From: Candidatus Yanofskybacteria bacterium RIFCSPHIGHO2_01_FULL_44_24
Lineage (GTDB): Bacteria; Patescibacteriota; Minisyncoccia; 2-02-FULL-40-12; GWA2-44-9
DNA: 46,011 nt
Assembly (NCBI GenBank): GCA_001794215.1
Contig: MGJK01000003.1
Location: 1-46,011 of the forward strand
Direction of reading: 5' to 3'
Shown: one piece after another, positions 6,484 to 24,495 of the stretch
Layout: every line of letters begins with the position of its first letter
Position numbering within the stretch: the first letter of the stretch is position 1
The notes under the pieces: model-generated
Told to the model about the DNA's origin: nothing
Database searches by the model: none
Seen by the model: the letters and a program-made list of their open reading frames with translations, nothing else
Translations under genes and position numbers: made by a program

Positions 6484-8508
6484 TTGACTGATTCAATATT
6501 AGAAAAATTGAATGATAAGCAGATTGAAGCCGTTAAGATCGTAGACGGGCCGGTTTTGGTTATTTCCGGACCCGGTTCGGGCAAAACCCGCTGTCTGACC
6601 CACCGGATAGCCCACCTTATCTCTGCCGGCGTCAGACCGCAAAACATCCTTGCGGTAACTTTCACCAATAAGGCTACTGAAGAGATGCGAAACAGAGTTT
6701 CGCATCTCTTAAATTTCCAATTTCCAATTTCCCCCGGCCTCGCCTCGGCTTGGCCGAGGGCGGGCAATTTCCAATTTCCTTTGATTGGAACATTCCATTC
6801 TATCTGCGCAAGAATACTGAGAAACGAGATAGGGAGGTTGGGCTATAGCCGAAGTTTTAATATTTTCGACGACGATGATCAGTTGTCGTTAACTAAAAAA
6901 ATAATGGCCGAGCTTGAAATAGATACCCAGCGGTTCAACCCTCGCGGAGTAATGAACAAAATTTCAAGCTTGAAAACCGAGCTTAAATTTCCGGAAAATT
7001 ATGACGGTGAGGATTTTTACTCCCGAATGGTTGCAAAAATATATAAAAACTATCAGTCGCAGCTCCAAAAAATGAATGTCTTAGACTTTGACGATCTGAT
7101 AGTCCTGACGGTTAAGATATTTAAAAACTACCCCGAGGTTTTGGATCGATACCAGGAAATGTGGCGATATATCCTCGTCGATGAATACCAGGACACCAGC
7201 TACGATCAGTATGTCCTCATAAATCTTCTCGGACAAAAATACAGGAATCTTTTCTGCATCGGCGACGATGCCCAGTCGATATATCAGTTCAGGAGGGCCG
7301 ATATAAGAAATATATTAAATTTTGAAAGGGATTATCCGGAAGCCAAAATAATTATGCTTGAGCAGAATTACCGTTCCACGAAAAATATCTTAAATGCCGC
7401 CCAAGAAATTATTTCCAACAATAAGTCCCAGATACCGAAATCCCTTTGGACTGATAACAATTCGGGTCACAAAATAACAGTTAAGGAGTCGATAAACGAA
7501 AGAATGGAAGCCCAATTTATAGTTGAAGAGGTTGAGGATCTTGCCGCTCAAGGTTACAAGCTCCGCGATTTCGCTGTTTTATACAGAACCCACGCCCAAT
7601 CAAGGGCAATAGAGGAGGCCTTCGTGGCCAAGGGTTTTCCGTATCAAATAATCGGCGGCATAAAATTCTACCAGCGAAAAGAGATTAAAGATATTTTAGC
7701 TTACTTAAAATTCATCAATAACCCGAATGATATCGCAAGCTTTGAAAGAATATATAATATTCCGCCAAGAGGCTTAGGCAAGGGCGTATTTGAGAAAATA
7801 AGCCGACAAGACGAACCCAACCTCATAAAAGCCGTAGCTGCCTTATCGAAAGAGCCGGCTCCACCCCGGCAATCCAAAGCCATAGCCCAGTTTTTAAATC
7901 TCCTGAACGATCTGAGCGAGCTTAAGACGACTAAGAAACTCACTGACATAATCAAAGCCGTTGTAAAAAAGACTGGCTATGAAAACTATCTTATCAATCT
8001 TTCTCTATCCAAGTCGGACGATCATGAAACAAATGATGAAAGAATAGAAAACCTCAAAGAGCTTCTGACAGTTACAAAAAAATACGACTCCCTTGAGATG
8101 GGAGAGGGGGTAGAGAAATTCCTTGAAGAAATCGCTCTTCTCCAAGATACCGACAAGCTAAAAGACGGAGAGATCGACCAGAACAAACAGGGGAAGATAA
8201 CTCTTATGACCGCTCATGCATCCAAGGGTCTTGAATTCCCGGTGGTTTTTCTGGCCGGAATGGAAGAGGGCCTCTTTCCGCACAGCAGAACGCTTATTAA
8301 CCCCGTAGAGTTAGAGGAAGAGCGGCGCCTATGCTACGTTGCCGTAACTCGGGCCAAAGAAAGGCTTATTATAACTACCGCAAAGTACAGAAACATATTC
8401 GGGTCTACCCAGGTAAACCTGCTCTCAAGATTTGTAAATGAGATCCCGACTAAACTCGTCGACTACCAACAGATGAGCTGGAGCGATGATGAAACCATAT
8501 ACTACTAA
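6484..8508 (+). CDS. pcrA: UvrD/PcrA SF1 DNA helicase
   Basis: SGPGSGKT, TFTNKA, LVDEYQD, GDDAQSIY, QNYRST, HASKGLEF, EERRLCYVAVTRAK. Confidence 0.95.
   Translation: MTDSILEKLNDKQIEAVKIVDGPVLVISGPGSGKTRCLTHRIAHLISAGVRPQNILAVTFTNKATEEMRNRVSHLLNFQFPISPGLASAWPRAGNFQFPLIGTFHSICARILRNEIGRLGYSRSFNIFDDDDQLSLTKKIMAELEIDTQRFNPRGVMNKISSLKTELKFPENYDGEDFYSRMVAKIYKNYQSQLQKMNVLDFDDLIVLTVKIFKNYPEVLDRYQEMWRYILVDEYQDTSYDQYVLINLLGQKYRNLFCIGDDAQSIYQFRRADIRNILNFERDYPEAKIIMLEQNYRSTKNILNAAQEIISNNKSQIPKSLWTDNNSGHKITVKESINERMEAQFIVEEVEDLAAQGYKLRDFAVLYRTHAQSRAIEEAFVAKGFPYQIIGGIKFYQRKEIKDILAYLKFINNPNDIASFERIYNIPPRGLGKGVFEKISRQDEPNLIKAVAALSKEPAPPRQSKAIAQFLNLLNDLSELKTTKKLTDIIKAVVKKTGYENYLINLSLSKSDDHETNDERIENLKELLTVTKKYDSLEMGEGVEKFLEEIALLQDTDKLKDGEIDQNKQGKITLMTAHASKGLEFPVVFLAGMEEGLFPHSRTLINPVELEEERRLCYVAVTRAKERLIITTAKYRNIFGSTQVNLLSRFVNEIPTKLVDYQQMSWSDDETIYY
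6712..6779 (+). repeat. In-frame repeat/palindrome insert in pcrA
   Basis: (AATTTCC)x3, then a GC-rich hairpin, then (AATTTCC)x2; encodes NFQFPISPGLASAWPRAGNFQFP. Confidence 0.8.
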
Positions 8509-8554
8509 CTAAACTGGGGGTCGTTAGCGCGGTAGCGCAGTATTAAAAACCAAT

Positions 8555-8917
8555 ATGGAGAATAAAAATTCCTACAGAAATTTAATAGTCTGGCAAAGGG
8601 CAGTCGAGTTGGCCCTGGAGATTTATAATTTAACAGAGAAGTTCCCTAAATCAGAAATCTATGGCCTGACTTCTCAAATGAGAAGATCTGCCATTTCAAT
8701 ACCATCTAACATTGCCTAGGGGAGAAGACGAGGTTACGAAAAAGAGTTCATCCACTTTTTGTCGATAGCTTACGGTTCTGGCGCAGAATTAGAAACTCAA
8801 ATAGAAATATCGAGAAAACTACCCTTCTCTAAAGATTTGGATTATAAGAAGGTAGATAGATTGATAGACGAGACGATGAGAATGCTTAATGTATTAATTA
8901 ATAAATCAAAAAGCTAA
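8555..8917 (+). pseudogene. Four-helix-bundle protein (23S rRNA IVP-like) with an in-frame TAG
   Basis: Manual translation: MENKNSYRNLIVWQRAVELALEIYNLTEKFPKSEIYGLTSQMRRSAISIPSNIA*GRRRGYEKEFIHFLSIAYGSGAELETQ... The TAG at 8717-8719 replaces the Glu of the SNIAEG motif. Absent from the ORF track. Confidence 0.88.
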
Positions 8918-9723
8918 TGACTACCACACTACCCACTAAGTTTACTCCTAAAAAATCCTTGGGTCAGAATTTTTTAATTAACCCCCACATAATAGACCGG
9001 ATTATTGATGCCGCCCGAATATCAGAGAAGGATTTAGTTTTAGAAATAGGTCCCGGAACAGGAAATTTAACGGAGAAGCTGGCGAAAAAGGCTGGCCAAG
9101 TTATCGCAATCGAGAAAGATAACCGCCTCATCGAACCCCTGCGGGAAAAGTTTAAGAATTTTAAAAATATAGAAATAATTGAGGGCGATGTCCTTGCAAA
9201 GATGCCCTTTGTAAAACAAAGGGCATCTTTGCAATATAAAATCGTCGCCAATATCCCATATTACATTACGTCCAATCTGTTCCGGAAAATATTCGAAGAG
9301 TGGCCCAGACCCGAGCTGGTCGTTCTGACAATTCAAAAAGAAGTCGCCCAAAGAATTACGGCCAAACCGCCCCATATGAACCTACTGGCCCTCTCCGTTC
9401 AATACTACGCCGAACCGGAAGTGGTTGTCTTTATTTCTAAAAATAACTTCCGGCCGATTCCCAAGGTTGACTCAGCTATTATCCGCTTAAATCCTAAATC
9501 CGAAATCCGAAATCCTAAAAAAACAGAAGAAATTTTTAAAGTAATAAAAGGGGGGTTCTCGGAGAAAAGGAAACAACTGGCAAGCAATCTTTCAAAAAAA
9601 CTTAAACTGTCTAAAAGCGCCGTCCTTGAAGCATTTAAAACGGCCGGTATAAAAGAACTATCACGACCGGAAAACCTTTCTCTCAACGACTGGGAAAATT
9701 TGGCAGAAGCTCTATTTGGCTAA
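8917..9723 (+). CDS. rsmA: 16S rRNA adenine dimethyltransferase KsgA/RsmA
   Basis: KKSLGQNFL, EIGPGTG, VANIPYYIT, PIPKVDS. Confidence 0.95.
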   Translation: MTTTLPTKFTPKKSLGQNFLINPHIIDRIIDAARISEKDLVLEIGPGTGNLTEKLAKKAGQVIAIEKDNRLIEPLREKFKNFKNIEIIEGDVLAKMPFVKQRASLQYKIVANIPYYITSNLFRKIFEEWPRPELVVLTIQKEVAQRITAKPPHMNLLALSVQYYAEPEVVVFISKNNFRPIPKVDSAIIRLNPKSEIRNPKKTEEIFKVIKGGFSEKRKQLASNLSKKLKLSKSAVLEAFKTAGIKELSRPENLSLNDWENLAEALFG

Positions 9724-18066: not shown

Positions 18067-18937
18067 TACACCACAACTAAACAGTAGACCTACCGGTCAA
18101 CAGGATACTACGACAGAAATGTCTACATATGAATACATCGTTGCTTCTCCTTATTTTGCCTATTATCAAGATGAGACCGAAGAAGAAAAGACCAGATTTA
18201 CAGATGCTTTCTTTGACCTCCCCGTGGCATTAAAGAATTTTCTATCGTCTCCCAAAACAGCTCAATATATCTATACAATGACCGCAGATCATGAAATGGG
18301 GGATATAGAAGCCTCTGTAATTGCTTCGTTGGTCCGAGATGTAATTGTCGGAAAAATTTTTGTTAAAGATTTTCCACTATTGTTGTCTTCGGGACTTAAT
18401 CTTGATCAGCAGAAAGCTTCTTCTATCGCTAATAAGATTGCTTCTGATCTTTTCACTCCGATACTGGAATACATTAAGGCAATCCAGCATCAAAAATTCG
18501 GAGATAAAATTAAATTAGCGAAGCTTGAGTCAAAACCCAAGATAGACACGGAAACTTTCATACGCTCCCAGACGCCTCCTCTGAAAAAAGAAATGCCCGA
18601 ACAACCGGAAAAAGAAGTTACCGTACTCTCGATGCAAGCTCCCGTAGAATCTAAATCTTTTCAGCCCTTGCCCCAAAAAGCTCCTTCTCCTCCTCCGCCG
18701 ATAAGGCAGGCTCTGCCTCAGCAACCGCCCCATCAACCGTCTCCGCCAATACCGGCCACGGCCATCACGCCTCCGAAGCCGTCAGTTACCCAACCGCCTC
18801 CCAATTTACCCCGGCCTGAACCAGTACCCAACTTATCAGCCAGAGCCGACGGGTTAAAACCAGCTCAATCACCCCAGACAGAGCAGAAGGGGAATGTGTT
18901 GGATTTAAGGAGTAAGGAACAAAATCCGAAATCCTAA
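18056..18937 (+). CDS. Hypothetical protein, helical N-domain plus Pro-rich tail
   Basis: ORF track starts at 17975; ATG 18056, overlapping the end of the upstream gene, is more plausible. Confidence 0.7.
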   Translation: MDTNTPQLNSRPTGQQDTTTEMSTYEYIVASPYFAYYQDETEEEKTRFTDAFFDLPVALKNFLSSPKTAQYIYTMTADHEMGDIEASVIASLVRDVIVGKIFVKDFPLLLSSGLNLDQQKASSIANKIASDLFTPILEYIKAIQHQKFGDKIKLAKLESKPKIDTETFIRSQTPPLKKEMPEQPEKEVTVLSMQAPVESKSFQPLPQKAPSPPPPIRQALPQQPPHQPSPPIPATAITPPKPSVTQPPPNLPRPEPVPNLSARADGLKPAQSPQTEQKGNVLDLRSKEQNPKS

Positions 18938-19055
18938 ATACTAAATCCTAAACAAATTCCAATGACCAAAATCCGAATTATCAAAACTGTTTTGAACATT
19001 TGGAAATTTGCATTTTGATATTGTTTAGAGTTTAGATATTAGAATTTAGAAATTT
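18922..19055. repeat. 7-nt-period palindromic element, copy 1
   Basis: AAATCCG/AAATCCT left arm, centre tcaaaac-t-gttttga, TTTAGA right arm; homologous to 21946-22080. Confidence 0.85.
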
Positions 19056-19061
19056 ATTCAA

Positions 19062-21947: not shown

Positions 21948-22080
21948 ATTTCTAATCCCTAAATCCTAATTTCTAAACAAACTCTAATGGCCAAAATCCA
22001 AATCACCAAAACAGTTTTGAAAATTTGGAAATTTGCATTTTAGTATTGTTTAGAGTTTAGGTGTTAGATTTTAGATATTT
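21946..22080. repeat. 7-nt-period palindromic element, copy 2
   Basis: Centre caaaac-a-gttttg; shares atttggaaatttgcatttt and tattgtttagagtttag with copy 1. Confidence 0.85.
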
Positions 22081-22087
22081 CCCCACC

Positions 22088-22837
22088 GTGGCTCAAAACA
22101 CCCAACAACTAAATGCCGACGGACGGGCCCTGGAAGAAGAGGAGATTTCAGATGAAGAAGAGTTAACGATTGACGCAATCGAAGAAGAGGAATTGGTCGC
22201 TAACCAGCTATCTACAGAAAGAAACCTTTATAATATGGAGAGGGAGGTTAACGACCTTGCGAAAACGGGGAAAAAATTCGGACATCCTTCTTTCTTAAAA
22301 TACGGGATACTCGCTTTATTGGCGGTGTCGGCAGATTTAATAGACGCGGCGGCCTTAACCGGCATAGGCGTGATCGTATCTACGTTCAGCTCTGTGGTTC
22401 TCAATTCTATTATTTTTATAATATTCATAACATCCGGAACAGAGCAGCATAATGCCGGACGGTACGTCAGCCATTCACAGGCAAGAATCCAAGAAATAAT
22501 CGGACAGATAGCAGACCTTGAGCGCAATATCGCTCATCTGGCTCGACGAAGTATGCAAGTTTCGAAATTCTTATTAGGCAAGAAGAGGTTTGCCAGGCTG
22601 GCGACTTCAAAGGCGGCAAAAGGTATAGAGGCAGGAACAAGATGGTTATCGAAGTCTTTGAAATGGGGAGGGCTGGTTGCCGAAACTATTCCGGCTATGG
22701 ACTTGGGATTTCTTCCTCTAACCTGTATTTCTGTTTTATTGAGCTATTTAGATGAGAGGAAAAGCTACAAGAACGCACGAACCGTAGGAGATAGCATCTC
22801 TGAACAATTTACTGAGGCCAGTACAGATTTAGCTTGA
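22088..22837 (+). CDS. Hypothetical membrane protein
   Basis: GTG 22088 lies after the repeat element (track start 22061 is inside it); acidic N-terminus, hydrophobic hairpin, coiled coil. Confidence 0.7.
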   Translation: MAQNTQQLNADGRALEEEEISDEEELTIDAIEEEELVANQLSTERNLYNMEREVNDLAKTGKKFGHPSFLKYGILALLAVSADLIDAAALTGIGVIVSTFSSVVLNSIIFIIFITSGTEQHNAGRYVSHSQARIQEIIGQIADLERNIAHLARRSMQVSKFLLGKKRFARLATSKAAKGIEAGTRWLSKSLKWGGLVAETIPAMDLGFLPLTCISVLLSYLDERKSYKNARTVGDSISEQFTEASTDLA

Positions 22838-22869
22838 GAGGGGCCACATGGTATAATAAAGAAATAACA

Positions 22870-23934
22870 ATGAGACTTAAAGTATATCTAATAACAATTT
22901 TAATATCTGTTGTAGCTGGGACCAGCTGGTATCTAATGGGGGAGGGGGGGGACTTCGAGGAACGCCAGACAGGCACTATTCTTGATGGCTTTACAGATAA
23001 TGACAAGAGCCGGATAAAATCCGCCGAATCGGGGCTTATTTTGCTTAGCCAGAGAAAAGCAATATCGGCGACTGACTCTCCGGAAAAGGGGGTATTATTC
23101 TACGAAAAAGAGACCGGGAAGGTTTTTCAAGTTGATATAGCCAACAAGACTGAATCGGTAGTCTCCTCGAAAGTTCTAGAAAATTTCCTAAGCACTGTTT
23201 GGGCGCCTAATAAACGCGATGTTATATCGTTATTCTACTCCCCGAATGGGAACAGGCTGAGCTACTATGATTACGACGCTAAAAAGGCCTGGGCTTATGA
23301 CCAGAGCATTAAATCAGCCGTTTTCTCTCCTGACGGCAACTCGGTTGCTTATTTCAAGACCGGATCAGAAGAAGACGGAGGATTGAATAAGATATTCATA
23401 GCACAGCCCAACGGCAGTTATACAAAAAAGATTTTAGACACACGATTAACGGATATTGAGATGTTCTGGCCCTTGGACAGCCAGCTTTCTTTTAAAACCA
23501 AATCTTCAGTGTTTATGCTGAGCAAGGACGGGGCTTTGAGCAAGTTTTTTGATGCTTATTCCGAGACTTTGAATGTGATGTGGTCTCAAAGCGGTAAAAA
23601 GGTCCTGCTATCCTACATTAACCCGAATAACGGAATTACCGAGCTCTGGTTTAAAAACACTGACTTTGGAGGAGAGGGCTTGCTGACGACAGGAATATCG
23701 GCCTCGGACTGTGCCTGGAGCATAGATGAAGTAAATATATTTTGCGCTGCAAATAAGTTCCCCGGGAGTTTAGAGACCGAAATACGCTTGATCAGCACTG
23801 ATAACGGATCGGTTAAGACGATGGGAGTCTCGGCGGTGGGATCAAAGAACCTGTTCCTTTCATCTTTAGAAGACTTCCTTGTATTTACAAGTCCTTTGGA
23901 CGAGCGTCTGTATGCACTAAAAATCAGTAATTAG
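22870..23934 (+). CDS. Membrane-anchored beta-propeller (TolB/WD40-like) protein
   Basis: N-terminal TM; WAPN, FSPDG, WSQSG, WSID blade motifs; TGGTATAAT upstream of ATG 22870. Confidence 0.75.
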   Translation: MRLKVYLITILISVVAGTSWYLMGEGGDFEERQTGTILDGFTDNDKSRIKSAESGLILLSQRKAISATDSPEKGVLFYEKETGKVFQVDIANKTESVVSSKVLENFLSTVWAPNKRDVISLFYSPNGNRLSYYDYDAKKAWAYDQSIKSAVFSPDGNSVAYFKTGSEEDGGLNKIFIAQPNGSYTKKILDTRLTDIEMFWPLDSQLSFKTKSSVFMLSKDGALSKFFDAYSETLNVMWSQSGKKVLLSYINPNNGITELWFKNTDFGGEGLLTTGISASDCAWSIDEVNIFCAANKFPGSLETEIRLISTDNGSVKTMGVSAVGSKNLFLSSLEDFLVFTSPLDERLYALKISN

Positions 23935-24019
23935 CTCTTAGCGTAGTAACGCAGTAGCTAAAAAGAGTACCTCTCAGGGGTGCTTTTGCTAAAAGCTAAA
24001 GCCTAATATGCTACGAGCT
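23932..24019. repeat. Periodic palindrome and probable bidirectional terminator
   Basis: TAGC-type repeats on the left, central hairpin gagtacctc/ggggtgctt, GCTA-type repeats on the right; between convergent genes. Confidence 0.65.
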
Positions 24020-24021
24020 TT

Positions 24022-24495
24022 TTATGGATAAGGCTTCACGATGATCCTTCTCTGGGGCTCGTTTCCAATACTTTCAGTGGCAATGTCGGGGTAAGAAGCT
24101 AATTCCATATGAACAATTCTTCTCTCATAGGCGGACATGGGGAGGAGCGCCTCTGCTTTTTGAGTATTGCGAACCCGGGTTACCACCTGCTTGGCAAGCT
24201 CTATCACATATGAAGCTTTGGCCTTTCGGTAGTCATTAACATCAACAACGATATTTTTGAATTCATTCAAATTCTTTAGAAACATAGCCCGAACTACCTG
24301 CTCGATGGCTCTCAGGTTCTGGCCGTTCTTGCCGATAAGGAAACGGGCGTTTTCCGGAGTGTAAACCAAAACTACAAGAGCTTTGCCGTCCTTATCGACT
24401 TCCTCCCGAGTCTCAACTTGGCACTCCAAGTTCATAAAAGAGATCATCTCCCTGATTTTCTCGGCTAAATTGTTTTTTGGATTAATGGATTCCAT
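24022..24495 (-). CDS. jag: Jag/KhpB-like RNA-binding protein (KH + R3H)
   Basis: LIGKNGQNL KH motif, PMSAYERRIVH R3H motif; downstream of yidC. Confidence 0.9.
   Translation of the reverse strand: MESINPKNNLAEKIREMISFMNLECQVETREEVDKDGKALVVLVYTPENARFLIGKNGQNLRAIEQVVRAMFLKNLNEFKNIVVDVNDYRKAKASYVIELAKQVVTRVRNTQKAEALLPMSAYERRIVHMELASYPDIATESIGNEPQRRIIVKPYP

Follow-up and report, generated by a model that had tools for sequence, protein, structure and literature searches.

The interval at positions 8510-8944 of a 46,011-nucleotide (nt) stretch of Candidatus Yanofskybacteria bacterium RIFCSPHIGHO2_01_FULL_44_24 (contig MGJK01000003.1, positions 1 to 46,011 of the forward strand; the whole stretch is called the window below) is probably a decayed copy of a gene cassette of the type known from intervening sequences (IVSs) of ribosomal RNA (rRNA) genes, in which a promoterless gene of the IVP/S23p family lies between inverted arms made of short tandem units. 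The cassette family to which it belongs, as a dead and eroded member, is real and widespread and has barely been described in print. In the following, G000 denotes this genome and the other G numbers its relatives, whereas L numbers refer to loci and C numbers to contigs.

The gene itself is a 120-codon frame on the plus strand at 8555-8917, between the stop codon of pcrA (8506-8508) and the ATG of rsmA (8917). It matched PF05635 with an E-value of 6.6e-38 (129.6 bits against a cut-off of 33.8, model positions 1-105 of 106) and, over the whole domain, TIGR02436 (23S rRNA IVP) with 1.9e-37 (127.8 bits, cut-off 24). Its protein is otherwise still 68% identical to that of the nearest relative, the intact G009 copy L013. 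A profile built from seven sequences of relatives (alignment A2) matched the PDB entries 2gsc (2e-28) and 2rld (1.2e-8), each with five chains. A preliminary description of this DNA had recognized a four-helix-bundle gene here, and the family assignment was borne out; its picture of a working unit was not, because the arms are eroded and an in-frame TAG at 8717-8719 of the plus strand had been overlooked. This TAG, seen in the translation and the alignment, replaces the glutamate codon of the NIAEG motif, a residue that is invariant in 14 of 14 other aligned intact proteins. Contigs of three other sequencing runs (X4, X5, and X6) covered it with no differing letter, and the filled, TAG-bearing junction was the sole form in the contigs of four DNA runs. 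Recoding of TAG was ruled out, as TAG closes 189 of the 710 long open reading frames (ORFs) and a CUA anticodon is absent from all 41 tRNAs. Since the TAG falls on an invariant glutamate, recurs in the three other runs, and is an ordinary stop codon in this organism, the window gene is evidently a recent pseudogene. The genome has seven PF05635 genes, with IVP genes on contigs C3, C8, C12, and C15, and only the window copy contains a stop; the intact copies include those at C15:75593-75937 and C12:13318-13716.

The arms of the window copy were delimited by reading the sequence, by Tandem Repeats Finder (TRF), and by folding. On the plus strand, the left arm (8510-8542) consists of an outer TAAACT (8510-8515), GTCGTTAGC (8520-8528), and the array TAGCGCGG-TAGCGCAG-TA (8525-8542), which ends 12 nt before the IVP ATG and has a period of 8, not 7. 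The right arm (8913-8944) consists of GCTAATGAC (8913-8921), the array ACTACCACACTACCCACTA (8920-8938), and an outer AGTTTA (8939-8944). TRF reported both arrays, with a period of 8 and 2.2 copies at 8525-8542 and with 2.6 copies at 8920-8938, and all of the letters quoted in the preliminary description are present where it placed them. In the minimum-energy fold of 8509-8945, 8510-8542 pairs with 8913-8944, and the structure is closed by TAAACT/AGTTTA and GTCGTTAGC/GCUAAUGAC. The best alignment of the two arms under permissive conditions sets GTCGTTAGCGCGGTAGCGCAGTA against GTGGGTAGTGTGGTAG-TCATTA, and the differences in the array part appear, by reading of the sequence, to be mostly C/T or A/G transitions at CpG. 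As had been described, the right arm runs into rsmA: it holds the IVP stop codon, which overlaps the rsmA start as TAATG at 8915-8919, together with the first nine codons of rsmA. Because rsmA begins just before the conserved PKKSLGQ in relatives that have no insert, this arrangement suggests that the right arm may now supply the start of rsmA. A promoter and terminator scan of 8300-9100 and 23800-24150 found no promoter-like sites and just two terminator-like matches, both of them minus-strand matches that did not exceed the level of shuffled sequences. The only Rfam matches in the window were tRNAs, with no rRNA, and neither this hairpin nor the one described below was matched by any family.

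The design is much clearer in the other copies. The preliminary description had made its reading depend on periodic complementary flanks in paralogues of the gene, and all six other copies in the genome have them, with inverted-flank Smith-Waterman scores of 28-46, whereas scores of at least 28 were reached by 2.4% of ORFs. When relatives were included, 20 of 27 IVP loci reached this score, compared with 26 of 1077 ORFs; among the copies of relatives alone, the count was 14 of 20. In the fold of an intact paralogue, the arms form one long closing stem (z = -3.58, with none of 100 shuffles equally good). The repeat unit differs at each of the seven genomic copies, which include GTAG-type, AAGTTTAT, ATTTAAAT, TTTTCAAT, TTTTTAC, and TTCGAAA units, and the cassettes of relatives have arms of equivalent design built from still other units. 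One of these copies, L032, lies inside an Rfam match to large-subunit rRNA and has periodic arms of the same kind, so rRNA IVSs and the cassettes between protein genes evidently represent one design. A longer IVP subfamily of 174-180 amino acids (L004, L016, and L026) was also observed, with a conserved C-terminal extension (..GSEFQGLQYKK..MPE..EYY..); L004 has ATTTAAAT arrays inside the ORF as well.

The same pattern extends far beyond these genomes. With the seven-sequence alignment A2, we retrieved 80 loci from Patescibacteria, Acidobacteriota, Bacteroidota, Clostridia, Gammaproteobacteria, Elusimicrobiota, Desulfobacterota, and other groups; 78 of them, representing over 10 phyla, were usable after L086 and L126 were left out because of short flanks. 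Cultured carriers of an intact cassette among these loci include Thiohalocapsa halophila DSM 6210 (L084), Lacinutrix mariniflava (L103), Fodinibius halophilus (L107), and Winogradskyella ursingii (L116). The inverted-flank score of 35 of these 78 loci was at or above the 99th percentile of a null distribution of mismatched upstream and downstream pairs, and the median was 28.5 compared with 14 for the null. Upstream flanks showed period 7 at a level of at least 0.7 in 49 of 77 cases and downstream flanks in 44 of 77, compared with 5 of 152 control windows located 600 nt away. For the analysis of arm composition, mismatches, and stops, loci with an alignment score below 30 were dropped (33 of 104), leaving 71. 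The upstream arms were G-rich (25% G, 11% C) and contained TAG 147 times and CTA 44 times, a 3.3-fold excess, which indicates that gene and arms keep the same orientation to each other throughout. The idea that 7-nt units act as stop devices in all frames proved weak, with all-frame stops in 33 of 71 upstream and 27 of 71 downstream arms.

Comparison of the junction between the two host genes in 17 relatives points to insertion. The upstream gene, pcrA (6484-8508, plus strand, stop TAA), encodes a UvrD-type helicase (Pfam UvrD-helicase, 4e-85; UvrD_C, 5.7e-81), and the downstream gene, rsmA/ksgA (8917-9723, plus strand, taken from the ORF list), matched RrnaAD (1.8e-58). In 13 of the 17 relatives, in which the helicase end was identified by reading the DNA, pcrA directly abuts rsmA, with no arms and no gene. 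The window locus is thus, as judged from these junctions, an insertion relative to most relatives, and the comparison of this junction that the preliminary description had called for bears out the cassette as a discrete, acquired unit. Arms without a gene were found at no orthologous locus, and the empty pcrA-rsmA junctions lack arms altogether. The remaining four relatives have inserts of different kinds: G012 has an IVP cassette of another subfamily with TTTACAAT-type arms; G009 has a truncated IVP gene with an upstream array only; G008 has a gene of 135 amino acids of the PDDEXK_3/GxxExxY type in periodic arms (Pfam, 5.6e-30; TIGR04256, 6.6e-31); and G015 has a non-periodic hairpin of approximately 220 nt (L045). 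The G012 cassette aligns over its arms and ORF with a cassette at an unrelated site in this genome, C8:24811, and the homology does not extend beyond the arms on either side. Because these two cassettes align over both arms and ORF at different sites, the arms and gene behave as one transferable unit. The GxxExxY genes of relatives in general also lie in periodic arms. In-frame GxxExxY (PF13366) inserts were observed in lepA (L161 and L163) and in a DEQH helicase gene (L162) of relatives G026, G027, and G005; these have ACGCAGA/TCTGCGT arms, and the three frames are open through arms and cargo for 750, 488, and 840 codons. Both lepA inserts sit between the ERGITIK and DTPGH motifs. Two small GIY-YIG genes were also noted in this genome, at C12:49334-49621 and C9:2142-2402 (Pfam, 2.7e-15 and 3.4e-16), each in a non-periodic inverted repeat of approximately 20 nt.

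A second locus in the window carries related arms without a gene. The hairpin at 23933-24019 (plus strand), whose left arm TAGCGTAGTAACGCAGTA lies at 23939-23956, has a convergent ORF on either side, 22834-23934(+) and 24022-24495(-). The fold of 23925-24025 had an energy of -38 kcal/mol with z = -4.2 on the plus strand and z = -1.2 on the minus strand. Between the left arm of this hairpin and that of the window cassette (8525-8542), 15 of 18 bases agree, and 0.01 such matches are expected per window. The TAGCGCAG unit occurs at four loci in all: these two, a hairpin inside a uvrC-like ORF at C6:29620, and a solo array at C12:5654. The 15/18 match and the recurrence of the unit at C6:29620 and C12:5654 support the idea of a single array family in this genome, with gene-bearing as well as gene-less members. 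The small hairpin with similar arms reported in the preliminary description is real, whereas its interpretation of the two loci as the filled and empty states of one cassette was upheld only in part: the unit is shared and gene-less hairpins exist, but no orthologous filled and empty pair was found. At the orthologous junction next to jag, none of 15 relatives had a filled counterpart of the hairpin; a periodic hairpin without a gene occurs there in one of them (G005), and in most of the rest the junction holds a plain hairpin resembling a terminator. The G014 jag junction contains a non-periodic long hairpin insert of approximately 200 nt (L148); like the G015 insert, it occupies a junction at which other relatives have periodic elements.

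According to the reading that we prefer, the cassette would have entered in one piece, precisely between the pcrA stop codon and rsmA. A working cassette would be co-transcribed with the host operon, and its arms would pair in the host transcript. By analogy with the published rRNA IVSs, RNase III, which is encoded in this genome at C20:3603-3998, could cut the arm stem, and this cutting would free the cargo mRNA and limit the harm to the flanking genes. The units, of 7 nt in general and 8 nt here, may grow and shrink by slippage, and their periodicity would keep the arms pairable in several registers. In the window copy, the gene would have died by a change of GAG to TAG, the arms would have eroded, and the right arm would have come to provide the start codon and first codons of rsmA. 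The intact IVP genes are under purifying selection, with a ratio of nonsynonymous to synonymous substitution rates (dN/dS) of 0.125 in a same-genus pair of orthologues, and the other intact pairs showed proportions of nonsynonymous differences (pN) of 0.16-0.28 compared with synonymous proportions (pS) of 0.69-0.92. Among 72 loci at which both neighbors could be called, IVP genes were co-directional with both in 62 and antisense to both in none, compared with a crude genome baseline of 59.6% and 10.8%, respectively; intact cargo genes are thus sense-oriented within operons. The IVP copy L022 (G020:C3:254326-254640) has an in-frame TAA stop and well-kept GTAACTA/TAGTTAC arms; because its arms are intact despite the stop codon, the death of the gene may precede the decay of the arms.

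Several observations weigh against this reading. The periodic complementary arms claimed for the window in the preliminary description were recovered as arrays, but their complementarity was not above chance: the inverted Smith-Waterman score of the window flanks was 16, a background level reached by 410 of 1077 genome ORFs, and the arm pair was absent from the output of the repeat search. The fold of 8509-8945 (437 nt) had a z-score of only -1.56, and 6 of 100 shuffles folded equally well. Arrays of period 7 or 8 are so abundant (306 in the genome) that their presence in the flanks carries little weight by itself. We identified no transposase, recombinase, or target-site duplication linked to the cassettes; no such duplication was recognized at the window or the G012 junction, and the TAATTTA at both ends of the G012 insert may be part of the arms. 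The arm mismatches showed no wobble bias, with 81 compatible with G.U pairing in the sense and 76 in the antisense direction and with 242 transversions. Furthermore, the S23p ORF of Coxiella has been argued to be probably not translated (PMC4990558), which sits uneasily with the purifying selection observed in these genomes.

The mismatch spectrum, lacking a strand-specific wobble signal, does not favor a constraint at the RNA level and leaves room for one at the DNA level. The arms might function mainly in DNA, as terminal inverted repeats or as single-stranded DNA hairpins used by a trans-acting transposase, a recombinase, or a replication-linked process, with the RNA stem being incidental. 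We regard this as possible, although somewhat unlikely. It would accommodate the occurrence of a whole unit at different sites in two genomes and the range of insertion sites, which comprises rRNA, gene junctions, and in-frame positions within lepA and a helicase gene. The genome also encodes an IS200-like Y1 transposase (C13:23750-24463; PF01797, 2.9e-9) with REP-like (repetitive extragenic palindromic) hairpins on both sides (catgtttggaggt...acctccaaacatg). On the other hand, the arm sequences vary from copy to copy, so all of them could not be recognized by a single sequence-specific enzyme; the cassettes have no linked enzyme gene; and RNase III cleavage of such a stem has been published for the rRNA form (PMC4990558). 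A role of the arms in DNA is, moreover, compatible with the cassette mechanism that we prefer and is not an exclusive alternative to it.

It is more doubtful that the cargo drives the spread in the manner of a free-standing homing gene, with a PD-(D/E)XK (GxxExxY) or IVP protein acting on empty sites, repair copying the cassette in, and the arms merely lowering the cost to the host. One alternative cargo does belong to a nuclease superfamily, the pcrA-rsmA junction holds different cassettes in 4 of the 17 relatives, and the cargo ORFs are under purifying selection; however, the IVP proteins have no known nuclease activity or motif, and the presence of one cassette type at unrelated sites is unexplained by a site-specific homing enzyme. 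Finally, the flanking arrays might be no more than the usual intergenic hairpins or terminators of a repeat-rich genome, unrelated to a gene that is simply a dying resident. In keeping with this, the window arms are no more complementary than background, and many of the 306 arrays lie in gene-less hairpins. We nevertheless consider it highly improbable, since arrays of period 7 or 8 (score of at least 29) occur near both ends of just 23 of 1092 ORFs, of which 5 are IVP genes (counted with a simple ORF caller that split the window gene at its stop and extended C8:24772 too far), matched arms flank the six other paralogues and most copies of relatives, the pattern recurs in phyla without the repeat load of this genome, and three other TAGCGCAG arrays are akin to the left arm of the window copy; at the level of the family, this interpretation is largely refuted.

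To our knowledge, the IVP/S23p family is very common but has no assigned function, and the rRNA IVS is the only setting in which it has been studied. In the 23S rRNA IVS of Coxiella burnetii, inverted repeats form a stem whose loop holds the S23p ORF, and RNase III cuts have been mapped in this stem (Warrier et al. 2016, PMC4990558). According to that article, two to four tandem heptamers precede the ATG, their number depending on the strain; the ORF is in decay; the protein of the IVS ORF is a homopentamer; and rRNA IVSs are also cited from Leptospira, Brucella, and Xanthomonas. The Coxiella IVS resembles the cassette family in having an IVP/S23p ORF between inverted repeats, a design that L032 has exactly in a 23S rRNA gene, and it resembles the window copy in the short tandem repeats before the ATG and the decay-prone ORF. 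The rRNA IVS is regarded as a selfish element. In contrast, the window cassette lies between the protein genes pcrA and rsmA in an operon, without rRNA, and differs from the Coxiella IVS in its 8-nt unit, its approximately two copies, and its eroded stem; RNase III excision has been reported only for the rRNA form. Our literature search found no paper on cross-phylum, heptamer-armed IVP cassettes outside rRNA. PF05635 (PDB 2GSC) has been related to Avd (4DWL), the accessory protein of diversity-generating retroelements (DGRs; PMC10053308), and the two share a fold family. Identity with DGR Avd was rejected, as the NCBIfam model DivGenRetAVD gave a weak match of 21.1 bits on the window gene against a cut-off of 80, and a DGR link was likewise rejected, as the two reverse transcriptases (RVT_1) of the genome lie on C5 and C19 and none is near an IVP gene.

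Hairpin-forming elements of other kinds also bear comparison. REP elements and REPINs, which are mobilized by RAYT transposases, and miniature inverted-repeat transposable elements (MITEs) are short hairpin-forming elements at gene junctions with dispersed gene-less copies. The cassette family likewise has hairpin elements at gene junctions and gene-less dispersed copies; unlike those elements, the IVP cassettes contain a conserved ORF, have no linked cognate transposase, and have arms that are tandem arrays rather than unique palindromes. A MITE- or REPIN-type classification was rejected, as no terminal sequence is common to all copies and the sharing of units is confined to small subfamilies such as that of TAGCGCAG, with four loci. 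Rickettsia palindromic elements persist in frame inside protein genes, and the short tandemly repeated repetitive (STRR) sequences of cyanobacteria are tandem heptanucleotide repeats scattered between genes. The in-frame arrays in pcrA and rsmA of this genome and the lepA inserts of relatives are reminiscent of the Rickettsia elements, whereas the sequences and hosts of both groups are unrelated to those studied here. We know of no case in which Rickettsia palindromic elements or STRR sequences package a four-helix-bundle gene.

Periodic arrays also occur in this genome apart from the IVP cassettes. The 92 strong period-7 arrays had a median length of 31 nt (10th-90th percentile, 27-34) and 4.4 copies; many were 100% perfect, and many different units were represented. 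This narrow range of lengths seems to fit a templated or length-controlled mode of formation better than free slippage. Inside pcrA, at 6712-6779, three copies of AATTTCC are followed by the GC-rich hairpin CCCGGCCTCGCCTCGGCTTGGCCGAGGGCGGG and then by CAATTTCCAATTTCC, in frame and encoding LNFQFPISPGLASAWPRAGNFQFPL. Elements of this type, with heptamer arrays around a CCCGCC...GGCGGG hairpin, also adjoin the cassette at C8:24811 and lie inside a glycosyltransferase ORF at approximately C12:8740-8800. A 32-nt array of AAATCC[T/G] heptamers occurs in frame inside rsmA at 9488-9519 (LNPKSEIRNPK) and matches an arm of a dispersed intergenic hairpin family. The rsmA genes of G005 and G009 likewise seem to contain in-frame inserts, as the match is split although the frame stays open. 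A dispersed family of long hairpins has members that are approximately 135 nt long and heptad-periodic throughout (AAATCCx4 ... CAAATTCCAATGACC ... TTTAGAx4), with intergenic copies at 18922-19056 and 21958-22076 of the window, at C4:41367-41488, and at C18:43523-43635 and 55736-55867.

More tentatively still, and with the odds in our judgment clearly against its holding in full, the cassettes may constitute a cross-phylum class of selfish units without transposases, in which RNase III cuts the register-tolerant stem formed by the arms, which thereby neutralize harm at the RNA level and allow life in rRNA, in operons, and in frame in essential genes such as lepA. The cargo of such units would be swapped, as between the IVP toroid and the protein of the GxxExxY nuclease family, and the pentameric IVP ring might read the units of its own arms, four to five in number and approximately one per subunit, and thereby control processing or movement. 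If the hairpin-armed cassette is the normal habitat of the IVP/S23p family, the rRNA IVS would be a special case of a broader selfish element, and the arms would offer a concrete RNA or DNA partner for the IVP protein. A rule would also follow by which annotation could recognize such inserts, those in frame within housekeeping genes of reduced genomes among them, as well as remnants that are broken or lack a gene. To this family, the window adds a dated end state, in which the gene is dead, the arms are eroded, and one arm has apparently been reused as the start of rsmA.

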